From positions 78,902-142,901 of the IMG/VR virus record IMGVR_UViG_3300028392_000036: DNA of 64,000 nucleotides; one strand, written 5' to 3'. Below the pieces are notes generated by a model. It had not been told where the DNA came from. It saw only the letters and a list, made by a program, of their open reading frames with translations, and did not search any database. The DNA comes from a virus. Below are positions 6,053-64,000 of the stretch, one piece after another (position 1 is the stretch's first letter; each line of letters opens with the position of its first letter). Position numbers and translations under genes: made by a program.

Positions 6053-7126
6053 TTATTTTTTGTTTTGCTTCAGGTATTCCGCATAACTCATAGCCCTCTG
6101 TCCTGTTGCAATATCACGTGGTTGTTTTAGCCAGGCATCCACAGTATCGAGTTTTGTTGGTGCAGGTAATGCTTGTGCGGGTGCAGTTGTTGGCAATTGC
6201 TCTGGTTTGTTGTCTGTGTCAACTTGATTTATTTTATCCAATGCCTTTTTACCTAGTCCTGCTAGTCGTGCAATATCTCCTGGAGAGGTGGTGTTATTTG
6301 GATCAATACCAGCGTCCCACATTTTATACATTTTCTCGCGTACCTGGTCCGGGCTTAGAGCATTTGATAATTTGCTTGGATCGATATATTTCTCGCTGTC
6401 TATCTTTACAGGTTTACCACCGCTAGTGGCTGTGAATTTCGTATATTTGTGAAAACGACTACCCGAAGGCGAACCATCACTTCTTATTATACTTTTGAGT
6501 TCTTCAACTGGGTCAGTTTCACGATTATCTCTAACATAGGTGTCCCCAATATTTCCATCAAAGTCGGTTTTGTAAATTACAATTTTGTTTTCTTCTGGTG
6601 TATTACTAGCATAATAATCATAAGGTTCACTGTCGTCTGGTTCCTTTAGTTTATTTTGATAACGCCAGTCGCTCGGGTCATCGGCTCTTGACCTGAATGA
6701 TGATTTTACTTTTGCAGGATTGATAGCGACACTTTGAAGATGTTTGATCAGTTGGGCAGCCGCCAGTTCGGGATTTTGTCGATACAAATCTAGTAAATCA
6801 AACATTTGATCTGTAGCAGATATGTCATCCCCCCTATCCTCATCGTCATAGTCAGGCTCTATATCTTCAAAACCCAAGGCGCCGGCCATGTCTTCCTGGG
6901 CATCAAACAGATCATCGTCGTCCTCTGCGTCCCATTGATCGAGATGATCTTGAATGCCTTTTAACAATGCAATTCCGGCTGGGATAGGCATAGCGGCAAC
7001 ACCTGCTGGTGTTGACAGCAGTTTAACTACAGGTGCAGGCACAGCCGCACTAGCCGCAAAACTTGCTAGACTTTTAAGGAACCCTCTACGAGTTGATTCG
7101 TTGATGTATTCTTTTAGGGTTTTCAT
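6053..7126 (-). CDS. Putative virion-internal protein: capsid-targeting-like leader followed by a twin-arginine motif
   Basis: Start moved to ATG 7126 (AAGGA RBS): MKTLKEYINE-STRRGFLKSLASFAASAAV. Confidence 0.75.
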   Translation of the reverse strand: MKTLKEYINESTRRGFLKSLASFAASAAVPAPVVKLLSTPAGVAAMPIPAGIALLKGIQDHLDQWDAEDDDDLFDAQEDMAGALGFEDIEPDYDDEDRGDDISATDQMFDLLDLYRQNPELAAAQLIKHLQSVAINPAKVKSSFRSRADDPSDWRYQNKLKEPDDSEPYDYYASNTPEENKIVIYKTDFDGNIGDTYVRDNRETDPVEELKSIIRSDGSPSGSRFHKYTKFTATSGGKPVKIDSEKYIDPSKLSNALSPDQVREKMYKMWDAGIDPNNTTSPGDIARLAGLGKKALDKINQVDTDNKPEQLPTTAPAQALPAPTKLDTVDAWLKQPRDIATGQRAMSYAEYLKQNKK

Positions 7127-7130
7127 TTTA

Positions 7131-8861
7131 TTATCCTTTTTTCTTGCGCCCTGTAGTCTTTTCATCAAAGTCGGCATCCTGAGCCTGTCTGGCTGCCTTG
7201 GCTCCCGGCCCAGTTAGTCTAGGTGCTTGTCCCACTTGATTGAGCTTTTCAATGTCCCCAATATCACTAGCATCTGCTGATGCTTCTTTAGAATCGCTAG
7301 GCTTGTTGGTTTTCTTTTTCTTCTTGCCCACGTCACCTGCATTGGGCGGCACTATCATGAAGCCCGGACGATTGTTACCTGCTATGTGGCTGGGTGCGTG
7401 ATAGTCAAATTCAAAGTCCAAGTTACCAAACGGCTTGCTGGTAATAACCAGTTGTCCTTCATTGTCAATGTCCACGTGACCCAGCTGGCAATTCAACTGT
7501 TTGATCATGTCGTTCATGATATCTTTGTATTGCTGTTGGTTAGGTCCACGGCGAATCATATACTCTATGCCCTTGCCTAAACTGTAGGCGATAATGTTGG
7601 CAGCACCATCCACATGATCATTGTCGTAACTGTATTTTCCTGCAATACCGGGTTTGGGCTTGTTGGCAGTGAGTCCCAGATAATAGTTTGAATCTTGTGG
7701 CATACCCACATTGCTACCCCATTGGCCGGCCTGTGTGGCAGGAAGTATCATTTGTAAAAATCCCTTGTAATCTAATTTTTCAACCAAGGGTTTTAATAGT
7801 TTTTTTAGTTCTGCCCAACTGTTGAATTCGCCGCCCAAGATGTCCACATAGCTGATATATTCGGGAGTTTGATTTCGATTGGCAGCCAAACAGATACGGT
7901 CAGTGACTGATCCTTCTTTTTTGGTGCTGGCCCAGATCTTGATAGCATCACGAAACATTTTTTGTTTGCCTTCGTCGGTCAAGGTCTGGTCGTATTCTTC
8001 TAGTAGGCTACCCAGACTGTTCATGCTGGTTCCTGAGCCGCCCAGCGCCTTGACACTGTAGCGTGTGTTGCCGCCCACAGTGACGTCGATCAACTTTTCG
8101 TTTCCCACTGGAAAACTAATTTCTTCGCTTTCGTTGGCTAATGCGATCGGAGCCAAGATCTCACCAAAGTCTTGACTGATCATGCCCAGGAATGGTTTTA
8201 CATATTCTAGGCTTTCGGGACTCAATTGTCCAGAGCCACGATTTTCAGCCAGCTCGACTAGCTCGGTCAGCGCCTTGGCCAAGTTTTCATTTTTGATTTT
8301 TGATTTGATAGCTTCTTTAGTGGCAGTGGCTAATTCTTTTCGGTCTGAGTACTCTCCGGCCAGGCCCAACTTGACTGGGGTAAGATCTTTGCGGTTCAAC
8401 ACTAGATCAACAGCGGCACCGGCATAGCTGGCAGCAGTCTTGACTCCACGTAGAACAAAGGTAAAAGTCTTGCCTTGACCGGTGTAACTGTAAATACTAA
8501 ATTGTCCACTAGATATGGCCTGATGGTCAGTTACAGGTGCTGAAACCAGCCCTAGCCCTTCTGCAGATTGCTCCAGTTGTGCTGGTGTTACGTCGCTGAT
8601 ACGCAGTACTGGTAATCGTCCAGATTTTTTGCTGTATTCTATTTTGTTTTTGGCATTTTCAACTCCGGCCTGCTCTAACCATTCTGACAATGCTGGAATC
8701 ATACTTTCGTAATCTGCTTTTTCGGCATAAACGGGCTGGGCAGGTTCTGCACCTGGGGGCTGTGCCGCAACTGCGGCATCTAATTCAGCTTCAAGTATCA
8801 TCATCTGTACCTTTGGTCCTTTGTCTGTAATTGATTCGAATAATTTTAGAGTATCGTGCAT
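7131..8861 (-). CDS. Large protein with a PD-(D/E)XK nuclease-like motif, possibly virion-internal
   Basis: DFGE...FP...LID...YSVK pattern; N-terminus MHDTLKLFE; TAAGTA upstream. Confidence 0.55.
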
Positions 8862-8890
8862 TTGCTTTTTTCCAAGAATAATGTTATACT
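8862..8890 (+). promoter_or_regulatory. Sigma70-type promoter for clpP
   Basis: TTGCTT-N17-TATACT with TGn. Confidence 0.6.
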
Positions 8891-8913
8891 TATCACATCA
8901 ACAAGGAGACCCC

Positions 8914-9504
8914 ATGCCAAACTTAGTACCTATTGTACTTGAACAAACAGCCAAAGGCGAACGCAGTTACGACATCTATAGCCGATTGCTAAAAGACCGT
9001 GTGATCATGCTGGACACAGAAGTGTCGGAACACACAGCCAGTTTACTGGTGGCACAGATGCTGTTTTTAGAAAGCGAAAATCCCGACAAGGATATCTCCC
9101 TATATATCAACTCGCCGGGCGGATCAGTAACAGCCGGTATGGCCATCTATGATACCATGCAGTTTATCCGGTGTGATGTGCAGACCATTGTGATGGGACA
9201 GGCCTGCTCCATGGGAAGTCTGCTAAGTACAGCAGGAGCCGCGGGCAAGCGTATGATTTTGCCCAATGCCCGACACATGATTCACCAACCATCAGGTGGT
9301 GCTCATGGACAAGCCACAGACATCCAAATCCAAGCAAGAGAAATTCAAAAGATGAAAGAGTATCTTACCAACATCTATGTCAAGCATAATTCAGCAGGTA
9401 AAACCTTTGGGCAGTTATCAGCAGATATGGAACGTGATTTCTTTATGTCAGCACAAGAAGCCTTGGACTATGGATTGGTAGACAAGATACTCGATAAACG
9501 TTAA
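8914..9504 (+). CDS. clpP: ATP-dependent Clp protease proteolytic subunit
   Basis: [44 protein letters not shown]; AAGGAG RBS. Confidence 0.97.
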
Positions 9505-10769
9505 TGAGCCTAAAAGATAATTTTTGCCCAAGTCCTTGGTTCCATATGCGTATTACCAATAATGGTGGTATGACCTATTGCCGTTGGGCAGACAAAAATG
9601 CAACAGAAGCCAACATTCGAGATGTTGATCCTCAAAGTTTTTTCCAACAACACATGGCCGGTGTACGCAAAAAAATATTGCAAGGCGAACCAGTTGATGG
9701 ATGTAAGAGTTGTTATCTCATGGAATGCCACAACAAGGTCAGTGGTAGACAAAAACAACTGCTCAAAATTGGTGTGCGTGTTGAACAGTTCGAAAAGACT
9801 CTGGCTTCGAGTCCTTGGGTTGATACATTTGCATCGCAGGAATTCTCACAGTCGCCACAAGATTGGCAAATAGACCTTGGCAATCACTGTAACAGTGCTT
9901 GTATTTTTTGTCACCCAAATGCCAGTTCAAGATTGGCCACGGAGTGGCAACGTATAGGTTTTATTGATCAACTGCCAGCACCAAATTGGACCGATGATCC
10001 AGCTCTAGTTGATCAATTTATTACCATGCTTGAAGCAAGCCCGCACATTCAATACTTACACTTTATTGGTGGAGAGACCTTGATCACTCCGGCATTTCAA
10101 ACCATACTAGAAGCATTGATCAGGTCAGGATTAAATCACACAGCCACAATAGGATTTACTACCAATCTTATCACTTGGAATCAGCAGGTAGTTGATTTGC
10201 TATCACAATTTGCCGGCGTTAATCTTGGCATGAGTATTGAATCATTTGACTCTGTAAACGATTATGTACGTTGGCCTGCTACGGTATCAAGGACACACAA
10301 AACTCTAGACCAATGGATTGCCATAGCACAAGATCACAATTGGTTAATGCAGTTCCGTACCACTCCCACGGCACTGACCATTGACTCTTTATTGAGTGTG
10401 TACCGGTATGCCTGGGATCGATCAATAGCGATCGAAAGTTGTAATTTTTTAGATCAACCTGAGTGCATGCGTCCATCGGTGTTGCCCTTGAGTTATCGTC
10501 AATCCATAATTGATCGCATGGAATCTTGGATTGCCGAACATGGTACTGATGCTGATATCATTGTAAATACTCGAGATCCAAATGTGGCCCAACAGCAGAT
10601 ATTACAAGATCTGCAGAGCTATGTAAACTACTTGAAACATGCGCCTGATGAAAGTTTTAGATTACCTGAATTAGTAGCATATCTAAAACGCATTGAATCC
10701 AGCCGTGGCAATAGTATATTGACCTATCTACCCCAATATGAAGAACTTTTCAGAACTGCTGGCTACTGA
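9504..10769 (+). CDS. Radical SAM enzyme with N-terminal twitch/SPASM-like domain
   Basis: CNSACIFC, FIGGE, FTTN; N-terminal CPSPW...CKSC. Confidence 0.9.
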   Translation: MSLKDNFCPSPWFHMRITNNGGMTYCRWADKNATEANIRDVDPQSFFQQHMAGVRKKILQGEPVDGCKSCYLMECHNKVSGRQKQLLKIGVRVEQFEKTLASSPWVDTFASQEFSQSPQDWQIDLGNHCNSACIFCHPNASSRLATEWQRIGFIDQLPAPNWTDDPALVDQFITMLEASPHIQYLHFIGGETLITPAFQTILEALIRSGLNHTATIGFTTNLITWNQQVVDLLSQFAGVNLGMSIESFDSVNDYVRWPATVSRTHKTLDQWIAIAQDHNWLMQFRTTPTALTIDSLLSVYRYAWDRSIAIESCNFLDQPECMRPSVLPLSYRQSIIDRMESWIAEHGTDADIIVNTRDPNVAQQQILQDLQSYVNYLKHAPDESFRLPELVAYLKRIESSRGNSILTYLPQYEELFRTAGY

Positions 10770-10992
10770 GTTAAAACTAAATGTTGTTGTAAATGGTGTT
10801 GCAACCACGGCCAATTTGCATGACCGAATGATTTTTAATGCAGACGATATTGTTGCAGTTGATACTATTAAGGTATTACCACAATATCGTTATTTGGCCA
10901 CTGACGGACAGTTGACTATCGACGAGCCATTCTATAATTGGTATCACAGAATTTCAGGGCAGGGGTGGCTATTAACGCCGCATCAAGGATGA
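10738..10992 (+). CDS. Hypothetical protein
   Basis: Overlaps the radical SAM end; EPFYNWYH..SGQGWLL. Confidence 0.6.
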   Translation: MKNFSELLATELKLNVVVNGVATTANLHDRMIFNADDIVAVDTIKVLPQYRYLATDGQLTIDEPFYNWYHRISGQGWLLTPHQG

Positions 10993-11045
10993 ACTTCCCC
11001 GCCTTCACGAGCCCAGCGAAACAATGTTACGAGAGCGTCAATCAT
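10983..11045 (-). CDS. Micro-ORF, 20 aa (MIDALVTLFRWAREGGEVHP)
   Basis: Own translation; AGGA RBS; last in a small-ORF operon. Confidence 0.4.
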   Translation of the reverse strand: MIDALVTLFRWAREGGEVHP

Positions 11046-11050
11046 TGATG

Positions 11051-11140
11051 TTATCCTGCAATTACCAAATAAACAATCATGGCCGCGATGGCACAGGCTG
11101 TGAATAAAGTGTTATCAGAAACAGGCGGTTTATCGAACAT
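11051..11140 (-). CDS. Micro-ORF, 29 aa, single TM (MFDKPPVSDNTLFTACAIAAMIVYLVIAG)
   Basis: Own translation; starts 3 nt after the preceding stop. Confidence 0.55.
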   Translation of the reverse strand: MFDKPPVSDNTLFTACAIAAMIVYLVIAG

Positions 11141-11143
11141 GTT

Positions 11144-11233
11144 TTACATCCATCCATATTTGATGCGATTGCTTGCTCGCATTTGTCCGTATGCCTCTAG
11201 GTATCGCCAAATGGCTTTTAAAACTTGTTTCAT
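11144..11233 (-). CDS. Micro-ORF, 29 aa, basic amphipathic (MKQVLKAIWRYLEAYGQMRASNRIKYGWM)
   Basis: Own translation; ATGA-coupled, AGGA RBS. Confidence 0.6.
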   Translation of the reverse strand: MKQVLKAIWRYLEAYGQMRASNRIKYGWM

Positions 11234-11400
11234 ACAAAATTCCTATCTGAATTTTTATCATACTGGCGTGACCAGTATTCCACATCTGATGCGCTGGTTA
11301 TGCATTTTGTGCTTAAATACTGTTCCAAGCGTGATTGATAACCTTGCTTGGGGAACATCTCAGCAAGACGTTCGATAAATTGAATAAACATTTGTGACAT
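11230..11400 (-). CDS. Small protein, 56 aa, DUF3563-like
   Basis: Own translation MSQMFIQFIERLAEMFPKQGYQSRLEQYLSTKCITSASDVEYWSRQYD; TAAATA plus AAGGAG upstream. Confidence 0.75.
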   Translation of the reverse strand: MSQMFIQFIERLAEMFPKQGYQSRLEQYLSTKCITSASDVEYWSRQYDKNSDRNFV

Positions 11401-11451
11401 TTACTTTTCTCCTTTGCAGTATTTACCACTAAGTAGAAACCATTATATATT

Positions 11452-12525
11452 ATGAAAATCAGACTAATTGGGCACAGAAATAACCTGGGAATAGGCGTAC
11501 ATTATAAAAATTTCGCCGATGCGCTAAAACGCATGAGTTACCTGGGTGATCTAGTGGAAGAAGTCAACTGTGACAATCAAGATGATGTGTGGGACGCGGC
11601 CAAACGTAGTCGGCCTGAAGACGTCAACATAAGTTTTGTAAGCATGCCCATACACGGGCATTATCAAGGTGCTAATATACAATGGGTAGTTTTTGAAAGT
11701 ACTCGAGTACCGCCCACAATAATGAGCACAATGCTAGCCGCTGACCAAGTGTGGGTTCCTAGCGAGTGGGGCAGAAAAGTCTTGATTGACAACGGTGCTG
11801 AAGCTGATCGATGCTGGATCATGCCCGAGGGTGTTGATGCACACAAGTACCATCCTTACAACCCGCGAGTTGAATCCTCTGTCATGAGCTATCTCATTAC
11901 CGGCAAATACGAACTGAGAAAAAGCATTATAGAAACAATAGTTGCCTGGGTTCAAGAATTTGGCAACGACCCTGGAGTGGAACTGATTGTCAAAAGCAAT
12001 CATTTTGCCAACCAAGTAGAAAAGTACAACGAACTCTCCAACTGGTTGGGGTCTACAGGCATCAACAATGTTCGTGTGTTATGGGGTGCGATCCCCGAAG
12101 CTGACTTGGTGGACCTGTATCAACAGAGTCATGTGTTTGTTCTACCCAGCAAAGGTGAAGGTTGGGGCTTGCCCTTGATCGAAGCCGCCGCAGTGGGACT
12201 GCCCATTATCACAACCATGTACAGTGCCCAAACAGAATTTCTACAACATATTACTTCAAGTGTGATCGCCGTGGAATATGATCCGATTCCTATTGCCTGT
12301 GCAGAATATCAATACTTCTATCCCACCGAGGATGGCAACTGGGGGCAGTGGGTGCAACCCAGAGTTGACAGCATACGAACCGCTTTGAGAACTGTCCGCG
12401 ACAACTACAGCATACTCAGTGAACAGGCTCGGATCAACAGCGAAATCATACGCAGGGATTTTAGTTGGGACCAATGTGCATTTCGTGTTGTGCAAACACT
12501 ACACAAACAGGGCTTGATAAAGTAA
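11452..12525 (+). CDS. Glycosyltransferase family 4 (GT-B)
   Basis: VWVPSEW, RKS, FVLPSKGEGWGLPLIEAAAVGLPII. Confidence 0.92.
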   Translation: MKIRLIGHRNNLGIGVHYKNFADALKRMSYLGDLVEEVNCDNQDDVWDAAKRSRPEDVNISFVSMPIHGHYQGANIQWVVFESTRVPPTIMSTMLAADQVWVPSEWGRKVLIDNGAEADRCWIMPEGVDAHKYHPYNPRVESSVMSYLITGKYELRKSIIETIVAWVQEFGNDPGVELIVKSNHFANQVEKYNELSNWLGSTGINNVRVLWGAIPEADLVDLYQQSHVFVLPSKGEGWGLPLIEAAAVGLPIITTMYSAQTEFLQHITSSVIAVEYDPIPIACAEYQYFYPTEDGNWGQWVQPRVDSIRTALRTVRDNYSILSEQARINSEIIRRDFSWDQCAFRVVQTLHKQGLIK

Positions 12526-12553
12526 TACTCAAGTATTACATAAAAAGTACTAC
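12522..12553. promoter_or_regulatory. Palindromic operator (copy 2) plus an extra half-site
   Basis: GTAATACTCAAGTATTAC 12522-12539; GTACTAC 12547-12553. Confidence 0.7.
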
Positions 12554-12563
12554 TTTTTGCTGG

Positions 12564-12592
12564 TTGACCAGAAATGCCCATTTTGCTATAAT
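12564..12592 (+). promoter_or_regulatory. Sigma70-type early promoter
   Basis: TTGACC-N17-TATAAT with TGn. Confidence 0.9.
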
Positions 12593-14023: not shown

Positions 14024-14024
14024 T

Positions 14025-23288: not shown

Positions 23289-24002
23289 ATGAAAGTTTAT
23301 ATTTCGAAATATCGAGATCACTGGATCTCACCTTACACTATATTGGACTATGTGTTCTTTTGGACTGACTGGTCCAAGTGCAGTCGAGACAAACGTATTC
23401 GCAGTCTTGAAGAAGAACGCACGTATGTAGAACATCCGGCCTGGGTAGAACGCTGGAGCGACCGCCTGGAACCCATTAGTCGTGCTATTCAATGGATATT
23501 AGATCGTGTGCATCCAGCCATCAACCTTGTGAAAATTGATCGTTGGGATACCTGGAGCATGGACCATACCTTGAGTCCCATCATCTTGCCCATGCTCAAG
23601 CAACTGAAAACAACTCAGCACGGTGCAGGGTTTGTAGACGATGACGATGTACCAGAGGAACTAAAATCAACATCAGCCCCGCCAAAAGAGAACGAATGGG
23701 ACACTGATGCCAATCACTTTGCTCGTTGGGAATATGTGCTGGATGAAATGATCTTTGCATTTGAGTGCAAAACAGATGACTCTTGGCAGGATGAGTTCTG
23801 TTCAGGCGAGATTGACATGCTATGGGTTCCTGTGGACAAAGACGGCAACGAAGTGCCCAAAGGTGAACACCGATACCATCAAATGAAAGACGGCCCCAAC
23901 AACACCTACAAATGCGATTATGAAGGTATGAAAGTGGTAGAAACACGTATACAAAACGGCTTCCGCTTGTTCGGTAGATACTACCAAAATCTTTGGGATT
24001 GA
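23289..24002 (+). CDS. Conserved phage hypothetical protein
   Basis: IDRWDTWSMDHTL, LDEMIFAF, GFRLFGRYYQNLWD. Confidence 0.8.
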   Translation: MKVYISKYRDHWISPYTILDYVFFWTDWSKCSRDKRIRSLEEERTYVEHPAWVERWSDRLEPISRAIQWILDRVHPAINLVKIDRWDTWSMDHTLSPIILPMLKQLKTTQHGAGFVDDDDVPEELKSTSAPPKENEWDTDANHFARWEYVLDEMIFAFECKTDDSWQDEFCSGEIDMLWVPVDKDGNEVPKGEHRYHQMKDGPNNTYKCDYEGMKVVETRIQNGFRLFGRYYQNLWD

Positions 24003-24003
24003 T

Positions 24004-24258
24004 ATGTCATTTAAACATCTGGTTAGAGACATGATGACCTACTCTGAAAACTTAGGCGTAGAATTTACTCCCAACTCAATACCCAGGAGCGACTACGATG
24101 AGTGGCGAAAACAATACACCTGGGACGCTCTCCATGATCTACGCTATGGACAAAGTTTCTGCAACTACTTTGGCATCACAGATCAACGAATCTTCTTTGA
24201 GCGAAACTGGTTGGTTTGCGACACAGTAATTCAGCGAGAGTGGCTTGCAAGATCCTAA
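24004..24258 (+). CDS. Hypothetical protein
   Basis: LRYGQSFCNYF motif. Confidence 0.7.
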   Translation: MSFKHLVRDMMTYSENLGVEFTPNSIPRSDYDEWRKQYTWDALHDLRYGQSFCNYFGITDQRIFFERNWLVCDTVIQREWLARS

Positions 24259-24487
24259 ATTTCCACATGGTGCATGTATTGACTGGGGGTATCGTATGGA
24301 CACCCAGTCGCAATGGGATGATGTGGCCATGTGGGGATTTGAAACATTTGGTCTCCCTGGTGAACGATATGTGACTGACATAAACATACACGACATGACC
24401 TGGTGGTTTCGTAGTGAACAGGATCGCTTGGTGTTTGTACTACGCAATGGCCTGGCTCGATGTATACAGTTAGAGTTGACAACATAG
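24245..24487 (+). CDS. Small protein, F-x-F...F-x-L paralogue family
   Basis: FGLPGERY...WWFRSEQDRLVFVLR. Confidence 0.7.
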   Translation: MQDPKFPHGACIDWGYRMDTQSQWDDVAMWGFETFGLPGERYVTDINIHDMTWWFRSEQDRLVFVLRNGLARCIQLELTT

Positions 24488-25731: not shown

Positions 25732-26547
25732 TTATCGAACAGCGCCAGCGATGTCGGCTTTGCTGATGTTCCTAGCACCCATAACATCGTTGCCATATTC
25801 CGTCCAGTCCACTGCCTGCCAAGGTGCTAGATCACCCCGAACAAAAAAGAAACTGTTGGGATTGGCCAGTTCAAATCCTTGTGTGATGATTTGCCCAGCA
25901 CGTCGGCCCTTCATCCTGAATGCAAAGTCGGCATCAGCAGGATCACGCACAAACTCATATCGGCCACTGGGCTTGGGCGGCTGAATTTGAGGTCGCTTTA
26001 CTTCGGTCCTGCGCCAAATTTGTGCCACTGCCGGAACATCGTATCCGCGTCGTGGGCCCTCACTGGGCAGGTAAAAACTATTGCGTGGTAGCACGTATTC
26101 GTCCATGAGTTCAAAGTCGTCGTCCAATCTATTTTGTATGCTGGGTCTGCGAAATGTGCGCGGAACAATTTGTGCAATGAAATCTGCAAAGGTTGAGGCC
26201 TTGTTGAAGAACCGGATGGCCAGATCTGATCCACGACCAAACGGAGGATTTTGTATGACCATGAGCCCTGGTTGACGTTGGTGTTGTGCTGTGAAGAAGT
26301 CTTGTCGAGTAATCTTGGGACTCTTGGGATCCAAATCATACATTTCAATACCAGGAAAATAACGTGCCAGATCTTGATTGCCTGCGGCTGGTTCAATCAT
26401 GCGTGACACTGGCAAGCGGTGACTTTTGACCCAGTTGGCAAATTGTTCTGCCGCTTGCGGACGAGTAAAGAACTGATCGTGCTCTACACCAGCAGATTGT
26501 TTACGCTGTGCTTGGGTTTTTTCCGGGATAAATTCGTTGAAACGCAT
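25732..26547 (-). CDS. Amino (N6A/N4C) DNA methyltransferase with capsid-targeting-like leader
   Basis: DQFFT, IEPAAG, QNPPFG; start MRFNEFIPE at 26547, TAAATA-N4-ATG. Confidence 0.8.
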   Translation of the reverse strand: MRFNEFIPEKTQAQRKQSAGVEHDQFFTRPQAAEQFANWVKSHRLPVSRMIEPAAGNQDLARYFPGIEMYDLDPKSPKITRQDFFTAQHQRQPGLMVIQNPPFGRGSDLAIRFFNKASTFADFIAQIVPRTFRRPSIQNRLDDDFELMDEYVLPRNSFYLPSEGPRRGYDVPAVAQIWRRTEVKRPQIQPPKPSGRYEFVRDPADADFAFRMKGRRAGQIITQGFELANPNSFFFVRGDLAPWQAVDWTEYGNDVMGARNISKADIAGAVR

Positions 26548-37717: not shown

Positions 37718-38266
37718 ATGGAATTACGCAACCACATCAATCTTGTAGAAGCAAGCACCCGTCCAGCAAAACTGGAAACTACCCCTCTCCCTTACGGTGT
37801 CAAAGACCTTGAGCCTGTGATGAGCAGAGCCACTATCGACTATCATTTTGAACACCTAGCCAAAGGCTATGCAAAGCGTTACAACGCAGGAGAAGGCAAT
37901 GCGGATTTTAATCGTGCTGGCAGTTTTCTACACAATAAATTTTTCCCTCAGCTTCGGGCTCCCAAGGGCGCAAACAAGCCCCGCGGTGCAGTACTCGCGC
38001 TGATAGAAGAAAACTTCAAGACTTGGGAAGATTTCAAGGAGCAGTTTAAAGAAACTGCAATGAAGATCCAGGGGTCTGGTTGGGTTTACTTGAGCACTGG
38101 TGGTACAATCAAAACAATCCCCAATCATCAAGTTCGCACTGATATCTGCTGTTTAGTAGACTGGTGGGAACACGCCTGGAGTTTAGACTACCAGTGGGAC
38201 AAAGAAAAATACCTAGACAATATCTGGAAGATTATTGACTGGGACGTTTGTAACGAAAGACTATAA
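37718..38266 (+). CDS. Fe/Mn superoxide dismutase with capsid-targeting-like leader
   Basis: LPY...LEP, IDYH, LHNKFF, QGSGW, DWWEHA; TAAATA-N4-ATG at 37718. Confidence 0.88.
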
Positions 38267-55793: not shown

Positions 55794-56408
55794 ATGCAAA
55801 CACACAACAAACATGGCGTCCGCGATCGAGATCTATTCAAAGATCACACCGACTACTGGCAGGTAGCCGACAACATTCGCGACATTTACATGAGTGAGGG
55901 CAGTTTAACTACCCTGCTGGACTTTGAGCGTGTGCTGGACGAAGTAGATATCTACGCATTCAAGAACTGGGACATTGGGGAACTGGTGGACGGTCCCGAA
56001 ATTGGCAAATACCGTGTGACCTGTACCTTTATGTGGCCGGAAAAGCTCATGCCCGATCCCCGTGGTGGGCGTAGACTTTTAGCATTTGACTGCGAAGTTG
56101 AATACCAACGCAAAGAAATAAAGATCCCCATTAAAATTACAGACCCCTCAGATTATCGCCCGGGCACACACAAAGCCAAGCTGACCACACGTGATGTGTG
56201 GCTAGTAACAATCACCATGCCCAAAGCACTCATGAACGACATCCGCACAGGATCAATCGAAATGGAAGATCAGGACATTGATCTAGACGAACTGGATCAG
56301 GCCTACGAAAACGATTTGGACAAAGAGGAAAATCAAAGCGATGAACAAGCCAACGATGCTCAACAATCCCTTCAACAGCAATCAGCCGCTACCGGCCCTG
56401 CTGTCTGA
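55794..56408 (+). CDS. Conserved late protein
   Basis: LLDFERVLD, NW..GELVDGP, MPDPRGG; TAAATA-N7-ATG. Confidence 0.8.
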   Translation: MQTHNKHGVRDRDLFKDHTDYWQVADNIRDIYMSEGSLTTLLDFERVLDEVDIYAFKNWDIGELVDGPEIGKYRVTCTFMWPEKLMPDPRGGRRLLAFDCEVEYQRKEIKIPIKITDPSDYRPGTHKAKLTTRDVWLVTITMPKALMNDIRTGSIEMEDQDIDLDELDQAYENDLDKEENQSDEQANDAQQSLQQQSAATGPAV

Positions 56409-56931
56409 GGGTCTGCAATATAAAGACCTAGAGGGCATGATGAAGCCCACGCTTCACGTGGACGAATTTGCGGCCAAAATGGGTGATGACGATGATATCA
56501 TTGTGCTATCATTCTTTGTGCGTGATTTAACAGCCGCCAAAGACCTAGTGGGATGGTTTGAAAAGGGCTATGACTTTGTGTTGGATGCCGATCGTAGCCC
56601 AGGTGAAATCAAGCCCAGCCGTTATCTAGTGTACTTAGAACTGCGTCGCCGTAGATCAGCACCACAGCACGTACAAACGCTGTTGGATGATTTATCGACA
56701 CTGACAGAATTTGCCCCAGAAGAATGGCGATTCAAATACGATGGTCGAGACCATGAATGGTCTGAAAAGACCTTTAGTGAACTGGTGCCATTAACTCCGG
56801 ATTCTTATAGAGCCACGCACGAAGATGACCTAAATGATGTGCGCACAGCGGCGGGTATTGCACCCAAAAAGATTCACGAAAAACTGCCGGATGATGTTAA
56901 ATCATTGCAGAGCATGGCCGGGATACGATAA
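56356..56931 (+). CDS. Conserved late protein
   Basis: LLSEGL, VDEF..KMG, FEKGY.FVLDAD; ends LQSMAGIR. Confidence 0.75.
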   Translation: MLNNPFNSNQPLPALLSEGLQYKDLEGMMKPTLHVDEFAAKMGDDDDIIVLSFFVRDLTAAKDLVGWFEKGYDFVLDADRSPGEIKPSRYLVYLELRRRRSAPQHVQTLLDDLSTLTEFAPEEWRFKYDGRDHEWSEKTFSELVPLTPDSYRATHEDDLNDVRTAAGIAPKKIHEKLPDDVKSLQSMAGIR

Positions 56932-58739
56932 TGAAGATAAACGACGTACTAGTAGAATTTGCACCCGCAGGTGGCGGAGGTTCAGGCAACTACTTTCAAG
57001 CCTTGGCCTCGGCCTGGTACAATGGTACCTTTGACACAGGCAGCCTGCAAAAAGGCATCAAGAGTCAAGAAGACGTGGAACGCTTGTTGAATCGCGGCAT
57101 TGTGTGCCCAGACGGCAAGACTCGTAAACTGCATATTGATTACAACTCAGACTTTGACGGTGTGGAAATCTACAGTGATGACTACTATGAATACGGTGAT
57201 CACGATGACACCATAGACAGTCGCACAGGCCAAAAATGGGGGCCATATGACTTTATGGCATTCTCAGATGATGAATTAAGCGAAGGTATTAATGAAAAGT
57301 TGGGTGCCAACAGACCCAGTCTAGGCAACCGACGCGATCAATTCCGGAACCTGCACAAGATGCGTAAACAACGTGGGCTAAATGAATTCTCAGCCGATGG
57401 TGGCGACAGTGGTGGCGACAGTGGTGGCGAAGACGATGCACTACGCAAATACGCTCAAATGTGGTGGACCGGAGACGAAGCAACGCAAATGCAAATTGAA
57501 GCCGCACTGGCCCGTATGGGCTGGGAAATCGGTGAGGACGAAGGCGGCTACGACAACGGCGGTGTGTTTGTGGTACGTGCTGGCGATGAAAATGGCAAAA
57601 GTTATACATCATGGCCCGCAGAAGATTTGTCAGAAGGTGTGGCGGAAGGCTCGTTAGATGAAAAGTCAACAAGCCAGGCACAGTTCCGCACAATGGCGGC
57701 AGCCGCACACAATCCTGAATTTGCTCGTAAAGTAGGCATCAAACAGAGTGTGGCACGAGAGTTTAATCAGGCCGATCGAGGGCAAGACTACAAGTCATTG
57801 CCAAAAAAGGCCACCGAAGGCGCTCCGGTCACAGCAACTCCGGGATCCATTGAATCCGGTGGAGCGGTGGACAATTTCAAACAACAAATGACCAACAATA
57901 CTGAAATTGCTTACAAAAAAGGCATGGCGGAAGCCGCTTTTATGCACAGCGGACAAAGTGCTCCATTCAGTGGTGTTGGTGGCACTGCAAAATACGGGTA
58001 TGGCCTAAACGATATACGAAATGCAAGGGCAAAAAAACCAGAAATTGATGCCAATCTGAGAAAATTTAAAGCATGGATCAACGGTGGCCCAAAGCCAGTA
58101 GATATAAATGATGTAATTCAATCTGTTGAAGTATATTTTACAAATATCAAACCGCCGTCAGATGCTAGAGTTTCAACGGCATTTAATCAAATATTAAATT
58201 CACAAGGCCAAGGTTGGGTCGCTAATAAAAATCAAGCCATGCTATTAAATCCATCATTAGACGCAGCCATTAGAGAACCATTGCCCAATCAACGTGCTGG
58301 AAATAATCAAAACGCAGATGGGTACCCTATCGCTCCTTCAAGGCCAATGGCTGGACAAGCGGCACAACCAGCACAAGCGGCACAACCAGCACAACCAGCA
58401 CAAGCGGCACAACCAGCACAACCAGCACAAGCGACATCAGCACAAGCACCAGCGGCAGCGGCAAATTCAGCAAATCCTGTAGGTAAGAAATTTAATACTG
58501 CAAATGCTACAACTGTTACTCCGAAACCAATAACAAGACCAGCATTACCAATGCGAGAACAAGATACTGTAGAAAGCAAAAGCAAGCCCGCAGAAAAAGA
58601 AGCCGACTATGGTGATGATTATCAGCAAATGGTTTTGCGCTTGAAAAAACTGGCCGGTGCAGGTCCATTAAAGACTGTGTACGATCCGCAAAAGCGTGTG
58701 TATCGAAACATGCCCACAGCACAACAGCCCAAAAAATGA
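56931..58739 (+). CDS. Modular putative virion-internal polyprotein
   Basis: MKINDVLVE leader; unrelated blocks joined at LSE/INE/LNE/VAE/LDE/ATE/MAE. Confidence 0.7.
   Translation: MKINDVLVEFAPAGGGGSGNYFQALASAWYNGTFDTGSLQKGIKSQEDVERLLNRGIVCPDGKTRKLHIDYNSDFDGVEIYSDDYYEYGDHDDTIDSRTGQKWGPYDFMAFSDDELSEGINEKLGANRPSLGNRRDQFRNLHKMRKQRGLNEFSADGGDSGGDSGGEDDALRKYAQMWWTGDEATQMQIEAALARMGWEIGEDEGGYDNGGVFVVRAGDENGKSYTSWPAEDLSEGVAEGSLDEKSTSQAQFRTMAAAAHNPEFARKVGIKQSVAREFNQADRGQDYKSLPKKATEGAPVTATPGSIESGGAVDNFKQQMTNNTEIAYKKGMAEAAFMHSGQSAPFSGVGGTAKYGYGLNDIRNARAKKPEIDANLRKFKAWINGGPKPVDINDVIQSVEVYFTNIKPPSDARVSTAFNQILNSQGQGWVANKNQAMLLNPSLDAAIREPLPNQRAGNNQNADGYPIAPSRPMAGQAAQPAQAAQPAQPAQAAQPAQPAQATSAQAPAAAANSANPVGKKFNTANATTVTPKPITRPALPMREQDTVESKSKPAEKEADYGDDYQQMVLRLKKLAGAGPLKTVYDPQKRVYRNMPTAQQPKK
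58355..58433 (+). repeat. 9-nt tandem repeat (AQP/AQA)
   Basis: GCACAACCA and GCACAAGCG units. Confidence 0.9.
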
Positions 58740-58903
58740 CAAGACGCACAGCAAACGGTCGACCAGTTCCTGTGCTACAAGGCTCAGCAGGACCTGTAGC
58801 ACCCAACCCACATGTACCACCACCCATGCCCGCACAGCAGGCAATGACACGATTACCACAGCCTGTGATCAACATGGGACTGGGCCTGAAACTAAACCCA
58901 TGA
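58736..58903 (+). CDS. Pro-rich small protein, 55 aa (not in ORF track)
   Basis: MTRRTANGRPVPVL...; ATGA overlaps at both ends. Confidence 0.5.
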   Translation: MTRRTANGRPVPVLQGSAGPVAPNPHVPPPMPAQQAMTRLPQPVINMGLGLKLNP

Positions 58904-59103
58904 GAGCTAACGAATTCGTCACTGAGAAAAAGCGCATGAAGCGACTGAAAGAACTTACTTTTATGGGCCTGAGTCCTTGCACCAAAGACTGTTCAGGACA
59001 CCGTGCAGGCTACCGATGGTCAAAAGCACGTGGTGGTGTTAGCACAGCAAGCCCAAGCAACAGTTTTAACCGGGGTGCTGAAATAGCCAAGGCTGGCTAC
59101 TAA
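58900..59103 (+). CDS. Small protein with capsid-targeting-like leader
   Basis: MRANEFVTE; CTKDCSGHRAGY.W...SNSF..G. Confidence 0.7.
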   Translation: MRANEFVTEKKRMKRLKELTFMGLSPCTKDCSGHRAGYRWSKARGGVSTASPSNSFNRGAEIAKAGY

Positions 59104-59819
59104 TTTTTCGTATAAACAAAATACAATCTATCATTGGCATCCTTTTTGTAGGTGTCTAAATGCAAGTTGTATTTCATTTCAAATTCTTTAACTACTTCAA
59201 AAGTCCAATTAAAAATGTCCACATACGGCCCTGTTCGGTGTGTGATTCCAGGATTGGCACGTAGATAAAACTTACCACCTGTGTCTAGTATATCCACACA
59301 TTTTTTAAAACGACTTTCTATTTCGTCGCGGCTATTAAAGTTAATTGATCCTAGTGCAATGATAACATCGTGACTGCCAACATAATCAAGTATATCAACC
59401 ATGTAGTCGGCACAATTATTGTAAGGATCAATACCAACCAAGTTACGGATTCGTCCTTTAAAGGGGTGATACCCACATCCAACATCAAGTACGCTACGAG
59501 GATTAACAGCGTTAATCTCGTCAGCAAGTTGCCAACCAGTGTAGTCATAGTCTCCGGTCCTGGGTTTCCAGATTTCTCCAAAGAAGCGATTGATATAACG
59601 CTCACTCAAGTCGTCTGTGATATATTTAAGCGAGCCCACGTAATCGCAGGGAAGGCTTAGTTCTGCTTCCACAGCATCTTTGAACTTTCTATAGCGAGCA
59701 GGCGTCCAGGGCAAGTCCTGTACTTGTGTATCAGCCGTGATAGAAATATCAGCATACTTGGGCAAATTAAACGCAGAGTGCAAATTTTTTTGTAAAAGGT
59801 TAAAAATTTTGGTGTTCAT
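59100..59819 (-). CDS. Class I SAM-dependent methyltransferase
   Basis: VLDVGCG, GIDP, LGSINF. Confidence 0.85.
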   Translation of the reverse strand: MNTKIFNLLQKNLHSAFNLPKYADISITADTQVQDLPWTPARYRKFKDAVEAELSLPCDYVGSLKYITDDLSERYINRFFGEIWKPRTGDYDYTGWQLADEINAVNPRSVLDVGCGYHPFKGRIRNLVGIDPYNNCADYMVDILDYVGSHDVIIALGSINFNSRDEIESRFKKCVDILDTGGKFYLRANPGITHRTGPYVDIFNWTFEVVKEFEMKYNLHLDTYKKDANDRLYFVYTKN

Positions 59820-59870
59820 AAAAAATTTTGATATATAAGTTAGATTTTCAACAGTATTTAAGGAGTTTAC

Positions 59871-60848
59871 ATGTCAATCAAAAAATTATTAATTGCCGCA
59901 TTGCTAGTGCCTGTGTTAGCATTTGCCTGGGAGCCTGCTAAACCTGTCACAGTTGTTATTGGCAACACACCCGGGGCTGGAAATGAAATGGCCTTTAGAA
60001 AACTTGCAGAAATTGTGCAGAAACGGAATCCCAATTTTGTGTATGTTGTGCAAAACATTCCTGGTGCCGATTCAGTTGTTGCCAACAACAAGTTTTTAGA
60101 AGCAGCCGCAGATGGCTTGACCATTAATTTGCCCAGCCACATGAGTTCATATGTAACAAATGATATCTGGGAAAAGTCAATAAAGAAATACAACTACGAC
60201 TCATTTGTTGATGTGCTAACAATGGGTAAAAGTCCTTTAGCACTAGTAGCGTCAGTCAAAAGCGGAATTGAAACCCCACAAGACTTTGTGAAGTACATAC
60301 AGTCCGGCAAAACAATCAACGTGGCCATTGGCGGCGGCGCACACCGTACTGCTTTTGAATACTTGATGGATCGAGCCCGTGGCAATCGAGACGCTGTTCG
60401 ATCCATCAAGTTCAATGGCCCTGTTCCTGCTGTGCAAAGCGTGGGCCAATGGGATGGCAAGACCGGCACTGAATTTGGTATCATGCCCATTGCTGTGGCC
60501 AAAAGCCTGATAGATGCAGGCCGGGTCAAACCTATTGGATTCACAGGCACAAGAAAGATGCCACAGTTTCCCAACGTTCCGTTGCTAAACACTGTGGCGC
60601 CAGGCATAAACGTATATGCCGCGTGGTCAATTCAATTGCCCCCAGGTACCGGCAAGGACATTACGGAATGGTATCAACGTGAATTTTCAGCCGCTGTACG
60701 TTCAACAGAATATCGAGAATACACAGATGCCAATGTTATCTTTTATGCTGAAGATGAATTGACTCCTGCAGGACTAAAGCGGCACATGGAAGAATTACGT
60801 GCCGCCTTTTTACCTGTGCTGAGCAAGATTGATTTAAGTAAAGAATGA
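59871..60848 (+). CDS. Tripartite tricarboxylate transporter substrate-binding protein (TctC/Bug)
   Basis: Signal peptide; P.KPVTVVI..TPGAG, NIPGA, R.PQFPNVP. Confidence 0.88.
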   Translation: MSIKKLLIAALLVPVLAFAWEPAKPVTVVIGNTPGAGNEMAFRKLAEIVQKRNPNFVYVVQNIPGADSVVANNKFLEAAADGLTINLPSHMSSYVTNDIWEKSIKKYNYDSFVDVLTMGKSPLALVASVKSGIETPQDFVKYIQSGKTINVAIGGGAHRTAFEYLMDRARGNRDAVRSIKFNGPVPAVQSVGQWDGKTGTEFGIMPIAVAKSLIDAGRVKPIGFTGTRKMPQFPNVPLLNTVAPGINVYAAWSIQLPPGTGKDITEWYQREFSAAVRSTEYREYTDANVIFYAEDELTPAGLKRHMEELRAAFLPVLSKIDLSKE

Positions 60849-61513
60849 AATATATCTTTGATATGAAATCAAATTGGGAAACGAGTCGAGCACGTAGCAC
60901 ATATCATTTTAATTCCAAGCAAATTGATCAGCCTGCTGAAGTAATGACATACTTGGGACACATAGAACCCACGTGGTTGGCAGATTTAAATGACGTAATT
61001 GCCACGGCACGGCCAGCAACCTGGGCCACACGAGGCTACAAAGGCGAGGGCATTGAAGCACCACCAGAAGAATTGGCTGCGGAAGAATATGATTTAACAA
61101 GTCACGGCATGAGTCCGGACTTGTCTATCTCGCATTTAAACTGGCGCTTGCCCGAGAGTCTGCGACGCATTAGTGATGCATTTGCTCTGGCAGACTGTAT
61201 GGATCGCATACACGTACAACAGCCCGGACAAGTGTGGAACTTGCACATAGACAAGTTATACAAATGGGATCCAGACCACCCCGAACAGGTCATGCGAATA
61301 ATGATACAACTTACAGACTGGCAACCCGGGCAGTTCTGGAGTTACGGCAACTACAACTACAGCCAATGGCGTGCCGGCGATGTCACTACATTTGACTGGG
61401 CCAATGTCCCGCACTCTACTGCCAATGCTGGATTTGAACCCAGGGCAACATTACAATTAACCGGCATACGAACTGCCGCAACCATGGACTACCTAGCGGC
61501 AATACCCCGATGA
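60845..61513 (+). CDS. 2OG-Fe(II)/cupin oxygenase (Asp/Asn beta-hydroxylase-like)
   Basis: QQPGQVWNLHID, WRAGD, PHSTAN...R.TLQ. Confidence 0.75.
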   Translation: MKYIFDMKSNWETSRARSTYHFNSKQIDQPAEVMTYLGHIEPTWLADLNDVIATARPATWATRGYKGEGIEAPPEELAAEEYDLTSHGMSPDLSISHLNWRLPESLRRISDAFALADCMDRIHVQQPGQVWNLHIDKLYKWDPDHPEQVMRIMIQLTDWQPGQFWSYGNYNYSQWRAGDVTTFDWANVPHSTANAGFEPRATLQLTGIRTAATMDYLAAIPR

Positions 61514-62130
61514 AAACAATCTTAATCTTAACAGGGCCGCAAGGCTCGGGCAATCATTTATGGTCAAAAATATTTGCGCTACATCCGCAGGTTTGGGGTT
61601 GGTCAGCACTGTTAAATGATTACTGGATAGGGCACGATCAAGAGCCATTTGCCCAGTACTGGCAGGATCCAGAACAGTTAAAATACTTTAAATGGGCGCA
61701 AAGCGACTGGTATGTGACTTCAATGAGTGTGCCTTATATGAATAATGGTGAACCCACTGTGCCTGATTTTAAATCATTTGTGACTAGATTACAAGTGTCA
61801 GGCCTACGTGTGAAGTTTGCTGTGCTGGGACGGGACAGAAACATTGTCCAAATGCAACAAACCCGTGTGCGTGGCGCACCCACCCTGGCCACAGCACTGT
61901 CAGAGTTTGATCAATTGGCTGCCCCTGTGTATTTGAGTTATGAAATGTTGCATCTTTATGGCACAAAGTATCTAGAAAACGTACAACAACAATTGGCCTT
62001 TCCTATTGCTGTCAACGACGCTAGATTAACGGATATACTAGCAACAGACGCAAATGCCAAGTATTTTCAACCCATCAAGCATCATGCCACAGATGATCTT
62101 GCACGTCACACTTCAAGGAAACACCGATGA
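61510..62130 (+). CDS. Sulfotransferase-like P-loop protein
   Basis: ILTGPQGSGNHLW, GRD, LSYE. Confidence 0.55.
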   Translation: MKTILILTGPQGSGNHLWSKIFALHPQVWGWSALLNDYWIGHDQEPFAQYWQDPEQLKYFKWAQSDWYVTSMSVPYMNNGEPTVPDFKSFVTRLQVSGLRVKFAVLGRDRNIVQMQQTRVRGAPTLATALSEFDQLAAPVYLSYEMLHLYGTKYLENVQQQLAFPIAVNDARLTDILATDANAKYFQPIKHHATDDLARHTSRKHR

Positions 62131-62969
62131 AACAACCACAACGTATATTGATAATGGGCCTGCCAGGCTCGGGCAAAACCTATCTTGCTGAAAGATTAAA
62201 ACGCTATTTAGAAGCACACATGAATCCCATCAATGAGCATAGTCTTAGACCCATTGCTGATGCACAAGTCACAGTGGCTTGGCTCAATGCCGACGAAGTT
62301 CGCAAACACTACAATGACTGGGACTTCTCTGTAGAAGGTCGCATTAGACAAAGTAAACGCATGCGAGACCTAGCTGATGAAGCCAACACTGACTATTGTA
62401 TTGTGGACTTTGTTGCTCCCCTGGTTGAAATGCGCAACAACTTCAAAGCGGACTGGTGCATCTGGGTAGACACAATTGATCGGGGTCGCTTTGAAGACAC
62501 AAATCGAGCATTTGTTCCTCCCGAAGTGTATGACTTCCGCATTACAGAACAAAACGCGGAGAAATGGGCAGAGTTCATTGGACAACACATTGTTGACAAT
62601 CAGCGTAGACCTACCTTCAACTGGCAGAAAGAAACTGTTCAAATGTTAGGAAGATGGCAACCCTGGCATGAGGGCCATCGTGCGTTGTTTGAACGTGCTA
62701 TTGCAAAAACAGGACAAGTTGTGATACAAATACGCGACTGTCAGGGCTGGCAAGGAACTAATCCTTTTGCTATAGAGCAAGTGAAACATTATATACGCAG
62801 AGATCTAGACCCCATTTATCAAGGCCAATATGAAATACAAGTTGTTCCTAATATTGTTAATATCACTTATGGTCGCGACGTGGGCTATCGAATCGAGCAA
62901 GAGTCCTTTGACGACGCGATTACCGATATCTCTGCGACCAAGATAAGAAAGTCAATGGGATTAGAATAA
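62127..62969 (+). CDS. Adenylylsulfate kinase (CysC-like) fused to an HxGH nucleotidyltransferase
   Basis: GLPGSGKT, NADEVR, DFS.EGR, FVAP; GRWQPWHEGH, ISATKIR. Confidence 0.85.
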   Translation: MKQPQRILIMGLPGSGKTYLAERLKRYLEAHMNPINEHSLRPIADAQVTVAWLNADEVRKHYNDWDFSVEGRIRQSKRMRDLADEANTDYCIVDFVAPLVEMRNNFKADWCIWVDTIDRGRFEDTNRAFVPPEVYDFRITEQNAEKWAEFIGQHIVDNQRRPTFNWQKETVQMLGRWQPWHEGHRALFERAIAKTGQVVIQIRDCQGWQGTNPFAIEQVKHYIRRDLDPIYQGQYEIQVVPNIVNITYGRDVGYRIEQESFDDAITDISATKIRKSMGLE

Positions 62970-62996
62970 GATAATTCCACGCTAAATATTAGCACT

Positions 62997-63440
62997 ATGT
63001 GGATCTTACACTTTCTTCCTGACAGCATTATTCTTGCATTCTGTAACACTCTGTTATTCGCGGGCATTTTAGCCACCGCGGCAGGCTTTGTTGCGCATCG
63101 TATCCCAGGATTGTGGTCATATCAATTGGGTTTTAAACTGGGTGGTATTGCATTGCTAGTACTAGGCGTGTACTTTCGCGGTGGACTGGCTGTGGAAGAA
63201 ACCTGGCGTGAGCGTGTGGCTGCTGTAGAAGCAAGACTTGCTCAGGCTGAAAAGGCTTCAGCAGATGCCAATACAAAAATAGACACAAAGTCACAAAAGA
63301 AAACAACGCAACTACGCGAACGCACCACATACATCCGACAGTATGTGGACCGTGAAGTTGTCAAGTACGATAACACTTGTACAATTCCTGAACCATTTAT
63401 TCGGGCGCATAATGACGCCGCGGAGGCACCTAAAAAATGA
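62997..63440 (+). CDS. Rz-like inner-membrane spanin candidate
   Basis: N-terminal TMs, coiled coil, C-terminal C.IP..F...HN.AA. Confidence 0.65.
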   Translation: MWILHFLPDSIILAFCNTLLFAGILATAAGFVAHRIPGLWSYQLGFKLGGIALLVLGVYFRGGLAVEETWRERVAAVEARLAQAEKASADANTKIDTKSQKKTTQLRERTTYIRQYVDREVVKYDNTCTIPEPFIRAHNDAAEAPKK

Positions 63441-64000
63441 AAATAAATGATATTTTAAATGAACAGTGGAGTCAAAAATACAAGAGCAGTATCAACTGCT
63501 CACACCCCAAAGGGTTTAGTCAACGAGCACATTGTGCCGGCAAAAAGAAACACAACGAAAGTGTTGAAATGGAAATGGTCTGCGAAGACTGTGGCATGTG
63601 TGAAACACACGGTAATGTAATGGAGATTCGGAAGGGTCAGAAAGACTCAAACGGATATACACGTTGTTGGCCGGGCAAACACGCCGAAGGCACCAAAAAA
63701 GGCAAGAATGGTGGACAGGTGCGTAACTGTGTGCCCAATGAAAGCGTTAACGAAGATGGCAAGCGATGCATGCAATGCGGTATGATCAATTGCAAGTGCC
63801 CTGGCGATAGTTGCAAGTGCAAGCCGGTCAAGGGTTGGGTGCCTGGCAAAGGATTCCGCAAAGCCATGGACGATGCTGCCAGTCGAGAACTGGCTGAAGA
63901 GTTTGATCTAATAGAAAACATCATTGAAGGTATTGCCGCACAAAATGGTGTAGACGCCGAAGCAGTATGGGCGGACCTAGAAAGTCTCACAGAAGATGAA
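63437..64000 (+). CDS. Modular Cys-rich putative virion-internal polyprotein (runs off the window; not in ORF track)
   Basis: Own translation MKINDILNE-QWSQKYKSSINCSHPKGFSQRAHC...CWPGK...RNCVPNE-SVNE-DGKRCMQC... Confidence 0.8.
   Translation, partial: MKINDILNEQWSQKYKSSINCSHPKGFSQRAHCAGKKKHNESVEMEMVCEDCGMCETHGNVMEIRKGQKDSNGYTRCWPGKHAEGTKKGKNGGQVRNCVPNESVNEDGKRCMQCGMINCKCPGDSCKCKPVKGWVPGKGFRKAMDDAASRELAEEFDLIENIIEGIAAQNGVDAEAVWADLESLTEDE

Follow-up and report, generated by a model that had tools for sequence, protein, structure and literature searches.

Short N-terminal leaders on unrelated proteins of a freshwater jumbo phage lineage resemble the capsid targeting sequence of phage T4

Why do genes that otherwise appear unrelated begin with closely similar peptides? 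This question is raised by a 64,000-nucleotide stretch of viral DNA (hereafter the window; positions 78,902 to 142,901 of IMG/VR record IMGVR_UViG_3300028392_000036), in which a short N-terminal leader ending in a hydrophobic residue, any residue, and glutamate (hydrophobic-x-E) recurs at gene starts. An earlier note on this DNA listed eight such leaders and proposed that they load enzymes into the phage capsid, in the manner of the capsid targeting sequence (CTS) of phage T4. We find that the leader is real, that selection acts on its peptide sequence, that unrelated proteins carry it, and that it is interchangeable before conserved mature modules. We consider it likely that these leaders are propeptides of the T4 capsid-targeting type.

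A recurrent leader at the starts of unrelated genes

The window is the final 64 kb of a 142.9-kb IMG/VR contig with a CheckV completeness of 41%, on which 210 genes were called with a codon-usage caller. A megablast search of the window against 50,697 phage records found no close relative. The jumbo phages PA5oct, Phosso, and Atu_ph07 have large terminases that are ~52% identical to that of the contig, which also encodes a gp32-like single-stranded DNA-binding protein and a UvsX-like recombinase. Three related lake-phage records, G001 (374 kb, rated complete), G002, and G003, were taken whole and, together with the contig, make up the lake-phage set. Proteins common to the contig and its relatives are 36 to 90% identical. 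The contig represents a freshwater jumbo phage lineage that is nearest to PA5oct, Atu_ph07, and Phosso.

The leader was described by a strict pattern, M-(K/R/H)-x(1-3)-(D/E)-hydrophobic-hydrophobic-x-E, that was tuned on the contig only. All eight peptides listed in the earlier note are present where it had placed them, with the fifth (...ALLSE) beginning at position 56395, within a gene that starts at 56341. The window proteins that carry these peptides, several of which match the strict pattern, are as follows.

6053..7126, minus strand: 357-residue protein with a 10-residue leader (7097-7126, MKTLKEYINE), then an RRGFLK block and a hydrophobic stretch; strict match.
7131..8861, minus strand: 576-residue protein with a diverged 9-residue leader (8835-8861, MHDTLKLFE).
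25732..26547, minus strand: 271-residue S-adenosylmethionine (SAM)-dependent methyltransferase, probably of the adenine-N6 type, with a 9-residue leader (26521-26547, MRFNEFIPE) and a linker of ~15 residues; strict match.
37718..38266, plus strand: 182-residue Fe/Mn superoxide dismutase (SOD) with a 17-residue N-terminal extension formed by an 11-residue leader (37718-37750) and a linker.
56341..56931, plus strand: 196-residue protein of virion-structural type (phrog_13138, 'virion structural protein') with a putative 23-residue propeptide (56341-56409).
56931..58739, plus strand: 602-residue modular, polyprotein-like protein with a 9-residue leader (56931-56957, MKINDVLVE); strict match.
58900..59103, plus strand: 67-residue basic protein (mature isoelectric point 10.5) with a 9-residue leader (58900-58926, MRANEFVTE); strict match.
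63437..64000, plus strand: Cys-rich protein of at least 187 residues, cut by the contig end, with a 9-residue leader (63437-63463, MKINDILNE); strict match.

Leaders measure 9 to 11 residues from the initiator Met, with the exception of the longer, 23-residue case at 56341, and homologues of leader proteins mostly begin at the same Met. Beyond the leader, the proteins are without similarity to each other, as the earlier note had said of these genes, apart from three tandem paralogues located outside the window.

On the contig, the strict pattern matches 8 of the 1,203 in-frame ATGs of called genes, all 8 at or near the 5′ end of an open reading frame (ORF), whereas amino-acid composition predicts ~0.04 matches by chance. 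These eight are the leaders at 7126, 26547, 56931, 58900, and 63437 together with those of the three tandem paralogues (contig positions 2541 to 3684). Because the pattern was tuned on the contig alone, G001 to G003 serve as an independent test, and they contribute 12 further strict start matches, none of which was used in defining the pattern. The four lake-phage genomes together have 20 start-zone matches. None of 4,317 deep-internal ATGs fits the pattern (Fisher p = 3e-9), nor does any of 15,318 ATGs in unchosen frames (p = 1e-17). In the unrelated jumbo phage 201phi2-1, no ORF among 3,784 matches the strict pattern, and there is no match to Peptidase_S77 (PF03420), the family used below to recognize the prohead protease.

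The peptide is kept while synonymous codons vary freely between leaders, which indicates that selection acts at the level of the peptide. The consensus of 45 distinct lake-phage leaders from related loci is A-(N/R)-(E/D)-F-(I/V/L)-x-E, with the final Glu in 45 of 45 and with Ile (17), Val (13), Leu (13), or Phe (2) at the P3 position. A weight model was trained on these leaders only, and the leader at 58900 receives its highest score (19.7).

The remaining three peptides of the earlier note (8861, the SOD at 37718, and 56341) are looser and fall outside the strict pattern, but they are backed by homologues. The same class of leader opens 88 homologues of the 8861 protein and is canonical in distant members, and for this reason the start at 8861 is preferred over the caller's choice of 8804. 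Some close homologues in this family end the leader in Asp instead of Glu. The SOD homologues of G002 and PA5oct carry their own, differing N-terminal extensions that likewise end in hydrophobic-x-E. In the 56341 family, a hydrophobic-x-E before GL is constant in G001, G002, and L005 to L008, and the propeptide upstream of it is variable in length and sequence. The leader on about ten unrelated proteins is real and lies far beyond chance.

Likeness to the T4 capsid targeting sequence

The T4 CTS, MKTYQEFIAE (PMC8442874), is traced to Mullaney and Black (1996) as cited in PMC5694885. IPII and IPIII carry this sequence, IPI, Alt, and gp24 carry related propeptides, and the gp21 prohead protease removes these leaders (PMC9026906; PMC8442874). 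Residues 4 and 7 of the T4 leader govern targeting, and residues 8 and 10 govern processing (PMC9026906). The equivalents of three of these residues (F7, I8, and E10) are conserved in lake-phage leaders, wherein the residue-7 position of the 45 leaders is occupied by Phe (28), Ile (11), Leu (3), Val (2), or Tyr (1). The strict pattern, when applied to 1,580 T4 ORFs, returns exactly IPII, IPIII, and the uncharacterised gene 61.1, and the 7 matches of the weight model among 271 T4 genes include 61.1, IPIII, IPII, gp24, gp2, and gp68. Gene 61.1 (NC_000866, 18966-19130), the best T4 match of the weight model, is a 54-residue ORF in an early region whose decapeptide is 3 positions off the IPII/IPIII CTS.

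Homologues of the leader proteins also permit the boundary between leader and mature protein to be compared. In the 56931 protein, the first mature module is FAPxGGG, and hydrophobic-x-E lies ahead of it in 17 of 17 homologous contexts, with either a 5- to 9-residue leader or the interior of a longer protein upstream. For the 63437 protein, whose mature module is KWSQKYKSS, 9 of 9 homologous contexts likewise show hydrophobic-x-E just ahead of the module, with differing leaders. In the 7126 family, the RRGFL block is retained in 100 of 109 homologues and the leaders ahead of it are swapped, with at least five different ones observed. The 58900 leader is retained in L006, L007, and L019, and elsewhere among relatives its module is embedded in longer proteins. 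The boundary data support the view that module boundaries behave as cleavage sites, and they show that the exchange of cargo modules takes place precisely at the predicted protease sites.

Relatives of the contig encode machinery that is consistent with such processing. Peptidase_S77 is found above its curated cut-off in G001, G002 (gp21-type protease gene at 23771-24418), G003, and PA5oct, and the head module of relatives is ordered as in T4: portal, small core protein, gp68-like protein, protease, scaffold, and major capsid protein. The major capsid proteins of the relatives bearing Peptidase_S77 start with two L-L-E sites.

For PA5oct, virion status was read from the electrospray ionization tandem mass spectrometry (ESI-MS/MS) flags of its record for leader matches only, with matches at 226960, 257620, and 106605 left out. 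Two proteins of interest are flagged. One is gp333, a leader-bearing protein of 73 residues encoded between the portal and protease genes, which is the position of gp67 in T4. The other is gp223 (NC_071039, 172979-173527), a homologue of the window SOD (37% identity) that is annotated as 'hypothetical protein'. With the residues noted above kept and two homologues virion-associated in PA5oct, the T4-type leader proposed in the earlier note is supported. The PA5oct paper reports 93 virion-linked products and mentions neither propeptides nor SOD (PMC7318152). Two further observations concern this genome. The gp223 gene sits among chaperone and Clp genes, and a leader-like gp213 (NC_071039, 179881-181020) lies beside a second 'head maturation protease', gp212, which was detected by mass spectrometry and is encoded far from the main head module.

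By analogy with T4, the leader would bind its protein to the prohead scaffolding core during head assembly. Once the shell is closed, a prohead protease of the gp21 family would cut after the last Glu of hydrophobic-x-Glu. The cut leader would then exit the head, and the mature protein would remain inside with the DNA. With this Glu replaced by Asp, T4 leaders still permit packaging but escape cleavage. We infer cleavage, packaging, and copy number of the lake-phage leader proteins from this analogy, under which the leader would imply prohead entry and cleavage. Injection before phage transcription, as envisaged in the earlier note, is an extrapolation from T4.

Several points weigh against assigning the lake-phage leaders this role. 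The position equivalent to T4 residue 4 (Tyr) is mostly Ala or Ile in the 9-residue leaders, whereas it is Leu or Phe in the 10-residue leaders of the 7126 family. Scores of the weight model below ~15 are not specific, as judged from 7 matches at a score of at least 10 in 201phi2-1. The contig gives no match to Peptidase_S77 and is also without a protease, scaffold, or capsid gene. The missing match says little because the contig is 41% complete, but the link to a gp21-type enzyme consequently depends on the relatives. Canonical leaders are few in PA5oct, where the mass spectrometry flag is absent from two of the three strict matches. The PA5oct virion analysis also picked up enzymes that the authors termed virion-unrelated (PMC7318152), and detection is therefore no proof of packaging. 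Finally, the T4 internal proteins are basic, whereas the small tandem leader proteins are not.

Predicted cargo and competing explanations

If it is true that the leader predicts head-packaged proteins, then the virion-internal proteome of uncultured giant phages would be readable from sequence. The predicted list includes two enzymes not known as phage cargo, the SOD and the methyltransferase.

The SOD assignment made in the earlier note is borne out by Pfam matches to Sod_Fe_C (77.3 bits, cut-off 20.9) and Sod_Fe_N (28.7 bits, cut-off 27). Residue 20 of the protein aligns to residue 3 of the Fe-SOD 8avm, and the metal ligands His, His, Asp, and His are in place. The protein scores below the NCBIfam equivalog cut-offs, which marks it as divergent. 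The window SOD nevertheless looks complete.

The methyltransferase assignment is upheld at the level of the class-I fold, with SAM-binding motif I, and of the catalytic (D/N)PP(F/Y) motif, here NPPF. The AlphaFold model (mean confidence, pLDDT, 88.5) has a disordered leader and is matched by Foldseek with a probability of 1.0 to Erm, KsgA, TrmN, and M.TaqI, which are adenine-N6 RNA or DNA methyltransferases. Within the NPPFG motif, N100, P102, and G104 are invariant, and P101 and F103 are at least 90% conserved. Searches of Pfam, NCBIfam, and PDB sequences gave no match. The protein is a SAM-dependent methyltransferase, probably of the adenine-N6 type, that would act on DNA or RNA, and as cargo it could protect or mark nucleic acid on entry. 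Approximately 96 close homologues (39-98% identity) carry the leader, whereas those at 31-38% identity begin at the DQFYT motif. Because these distant homologues, as well as canonical SODs, are without it, the leader is best described as an add-on.

The 6053-7126 protein carries a twin-arginine-like RRGFLK block and an Ala-rich hydrophobic stretch right after its leader. This segment, in which the (S/T)-R-R-x-F-L-K motif of twin-arginine (Tat) signal peptides is present, is near-invariant in the 100 homologues that retain it, with variable C-terminal halves, but its conservation is far above that of usual signal peptides, and the RRGFLK block becomes N-terminal only once the leader is removed. 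The block may be a second address that is uncovered by leader cleavage. An upstream stop lies at 7131, immediately before the gene start at 7126, which also has a Shine-Dalgarno sequence. Neither this protein nor the 7131-8861 protein gave a match in Pfam, NCBIfam, PHROGs, or a PDB sequence search. An otherwise unrelated protein of G001 (103509-104144) has the same layout of a leader followed by RRGFL.

The earlier note had drawn these elements together as a general cargo system that delivers a methyltransferase, a nuclease-like protein, SOD, and peptides. The T4-type capsid-targeting or propeptide signal on unrelated proteins is upheld by our analysis, with a gp21-type protease in relatives and cleavage-like boundaries, but no nuclease-like cargo was identified among the leader proteins, and apart from the SOD and the methyltransferase none of them could be assigned a function. 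The mechanism is already known from T4, and a general cargo system has already been proposed for T4-like phages (PMC9026906). What is new here is the phage lineage and the candidate cargo. An ambitious version of the proposal is that a lineage-wide plug-in address packs active enzymes (an Fe/Mn SOD and an adenine-type methyltransferase) together with proteins that bear a hidden twin-arginine-like address, uncovered only by removal of the leader. The enzymes would act in the host cytoplasm, or in the periplasm following re-export, ahead of all phage gene expression. We regard this version as doubtful.

For the SOD, the methyltransferase, the RRGFLK protein, and the small proteins, the choice between ejection into the host and a fate as a degraded core component is likewise inferred from analogy. 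With the biochemistry unchanged, the leader might mark prohead-core, scaffold, and shell proteins that are cut and then either largely degraded or structurally retained, such that some or most of them are not payload delivered to the host. This explanation is possible, though well short of even chances. It draws on the fact that the T4 vertex shell protein gp24 and the core or scaffold proteins gp68 and gp22 have similar N-termini, and the presence of such N-termini on T4 shell and core proteins (gp24, gp68) means that a leader is no proof of ejection. The modular 56931 protein with its many hydrophobic-x-E sites and the occurrence of PA5oct gp333 at the T4 gp67 position are also in its favor. 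Folded enzymes, however, such as an SOD with intact ligands and a methyltransferase with a confidently predicted fold, are unlikely scaffold material, and T4 internal proteins, Alt, and CTS fusions remain in the head and are delivered (PMC9026906, PMC8442874).

An origin of the similar N-termini in chance, or in nucleotide or translation-initiation bias at 5′ ends with the peptide itself functionless, is improbable in the extreme. AT-rich, Lys/Asn/Ile-rich N-termini are frequent in phage genes, and the weight-model matches in the unrelated 201phi2-1 also speak for it. Against this stand the eight matches observed where ~0.04 are expected, their complete absence from internal and off-frame ATGs, the synonymous variation beside a conserved peptide, and the retention of the leader across the ~96 methyltransferase homologues. 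The codon variation, the ATG controls, and the methyltransferase conservation effectively refute this explanation. It is also very unlikely that the leader is a recognition tag for another phage machine, either the ClpXP protease or a radical-SAM (N_Twi_rSAM) enzyme. Such a role is brought to mind by window positions 8914 to 10769 (plus strand), where a genuine ClpP gene (NF001368, 313 bits) adjoins two leader genes and precedes a twitch-domain radical-SAM gene. The contig also has a ClpX-like gene (N-terminal sequence only) and 6 N_Twi_rSAM matches, and 2 of 6 leader loci lie within 3 kb of a radical-SAM gene. In G001 to G003, however, most strong-scoring leader genes are ~8 to 60 kb from any radical-SAM match (one G001 gene is at ~6 kb), and the 9 to 13 matches in each relative are mostly in clusters of their own. 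PA5oct has leaders but no N_Twi_rSAM match. On the grounds of this distance in relatives and the absence of a match from PA5oct, the radical-SAM tag was rejected. More generally, a recognition tag would leave the invariant Glu boundary ahead of swapped modules without a reason, and the near-identical signal of T4 is by experiment a capsid signal.

Relation to known systems and the setting of the leader genes

Resemblance to the T4 CTS extends to several features. In both cases an N-terminal segment of 9 to 11 residues, with a core of E-F-(I/V)-x-E that ends in hydrophobic-x-Glu, is found on unrelated proteins, and the lake-phage lineage combines a protease of the gp21 family with a head module in T4 order. 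The lake-phage leader differs in that it is usually one residue shorter, is without the aromatic residue at position 4, and belongs to a different phage family with more leader genes per genome. The predicted lake-phage cargo is also distinct, comprising the SOD, the methyltransferase, the twin-arginine-like protein, and modular polyproteins. A looser parallel is the cargo-loading peptide of encapsulins, which is short and portable and loads enzymes, including oxidative-stress enzymes, into a shell with the HK97 fold. This peptide is C-terminal and uncleaved, and the compartment is not a virion, such that the analogy is functional only.

Among phiKZ-like giant phages such as SPN3US and 201phi2-1, many internal or ejection head proteins are processed after Glu, and prohead targeting is the presumed role of the propeptides (PMC5694885). 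These propeptides are mostly longer than 100 residues and are cut by a gp21-related protease (PMC5694885). Unlike the lake-phage leader, they are not a common short portable tag, and the strict pattern is absent from 201phi2-1. DarB of phage P1 provides a precedent for packaging of a DNA-protecting protein, wherein a signal at the N-terminus, shorter than 30 residues, brings this large anti-restriction protein, as well as a reporter fusion, into the capsid (PMC9024508). The DarB signal has another sequence, packaging needs other Dar proteins, and no cleavage of the signal is described in PMC9024508.

Other features of the leader proteins can be added. Residues 246 to 296 of the 602-residue protein match 'virion structural' PHROGs, and the protein holds many internal hydrophobic-x-E sites. 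The three tandem small proteins at contig positions 2541 to 3684 and the 67-residue 58900 protein share a C-terminus, ...(F/K)(K/G/A)-G-Y, with a trailing R in one of them, which may reflect a common motif or distant paralogy. In G002, four consecutive genes on the minus strand (140738-144452; 480, 156, 88, and 505 residues) have a leader at each start. Tandem arrangements of this kind are reminiscent of the T4 internal-protein loci.

The earlier note had also placed the leader genes in units headed by a TAA(A/G)TA motif and had looked to an enrichment of leaders in late over early genes. The motif is real and is enriched between genes (46 of 100 copies in the intergenic 12% of the contig), but its link to leader genes is not significant. 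The contig has upstream motifs of two classes, sigma70-like promoters (27) and a motif of the TAAATA(C/T) type. Of the leader genes, five belong to TAAATA-type units and none to sigma70 units, with three left unassigned (p = 0.33), and this comparison is without power because TAAATA-type units hold 127 of the 172 assigned genes. Enrichment of leaders in late over early genes is not significant on this comparison.

The TAAATA(C/T) motif often ends just 4 to 8 nucleotides ahead of the ATG. Such spacing could reflect leaderless transcripts, or merely a TAA stop followed by an AT-rich spacer. Many of the sigma70-like promoters are near-identical (TTGACC...TGCTATAAT; for example, at window positions 12590, 12910, 19590, 30140, and 30660) and lie mostly ahead of small genes.

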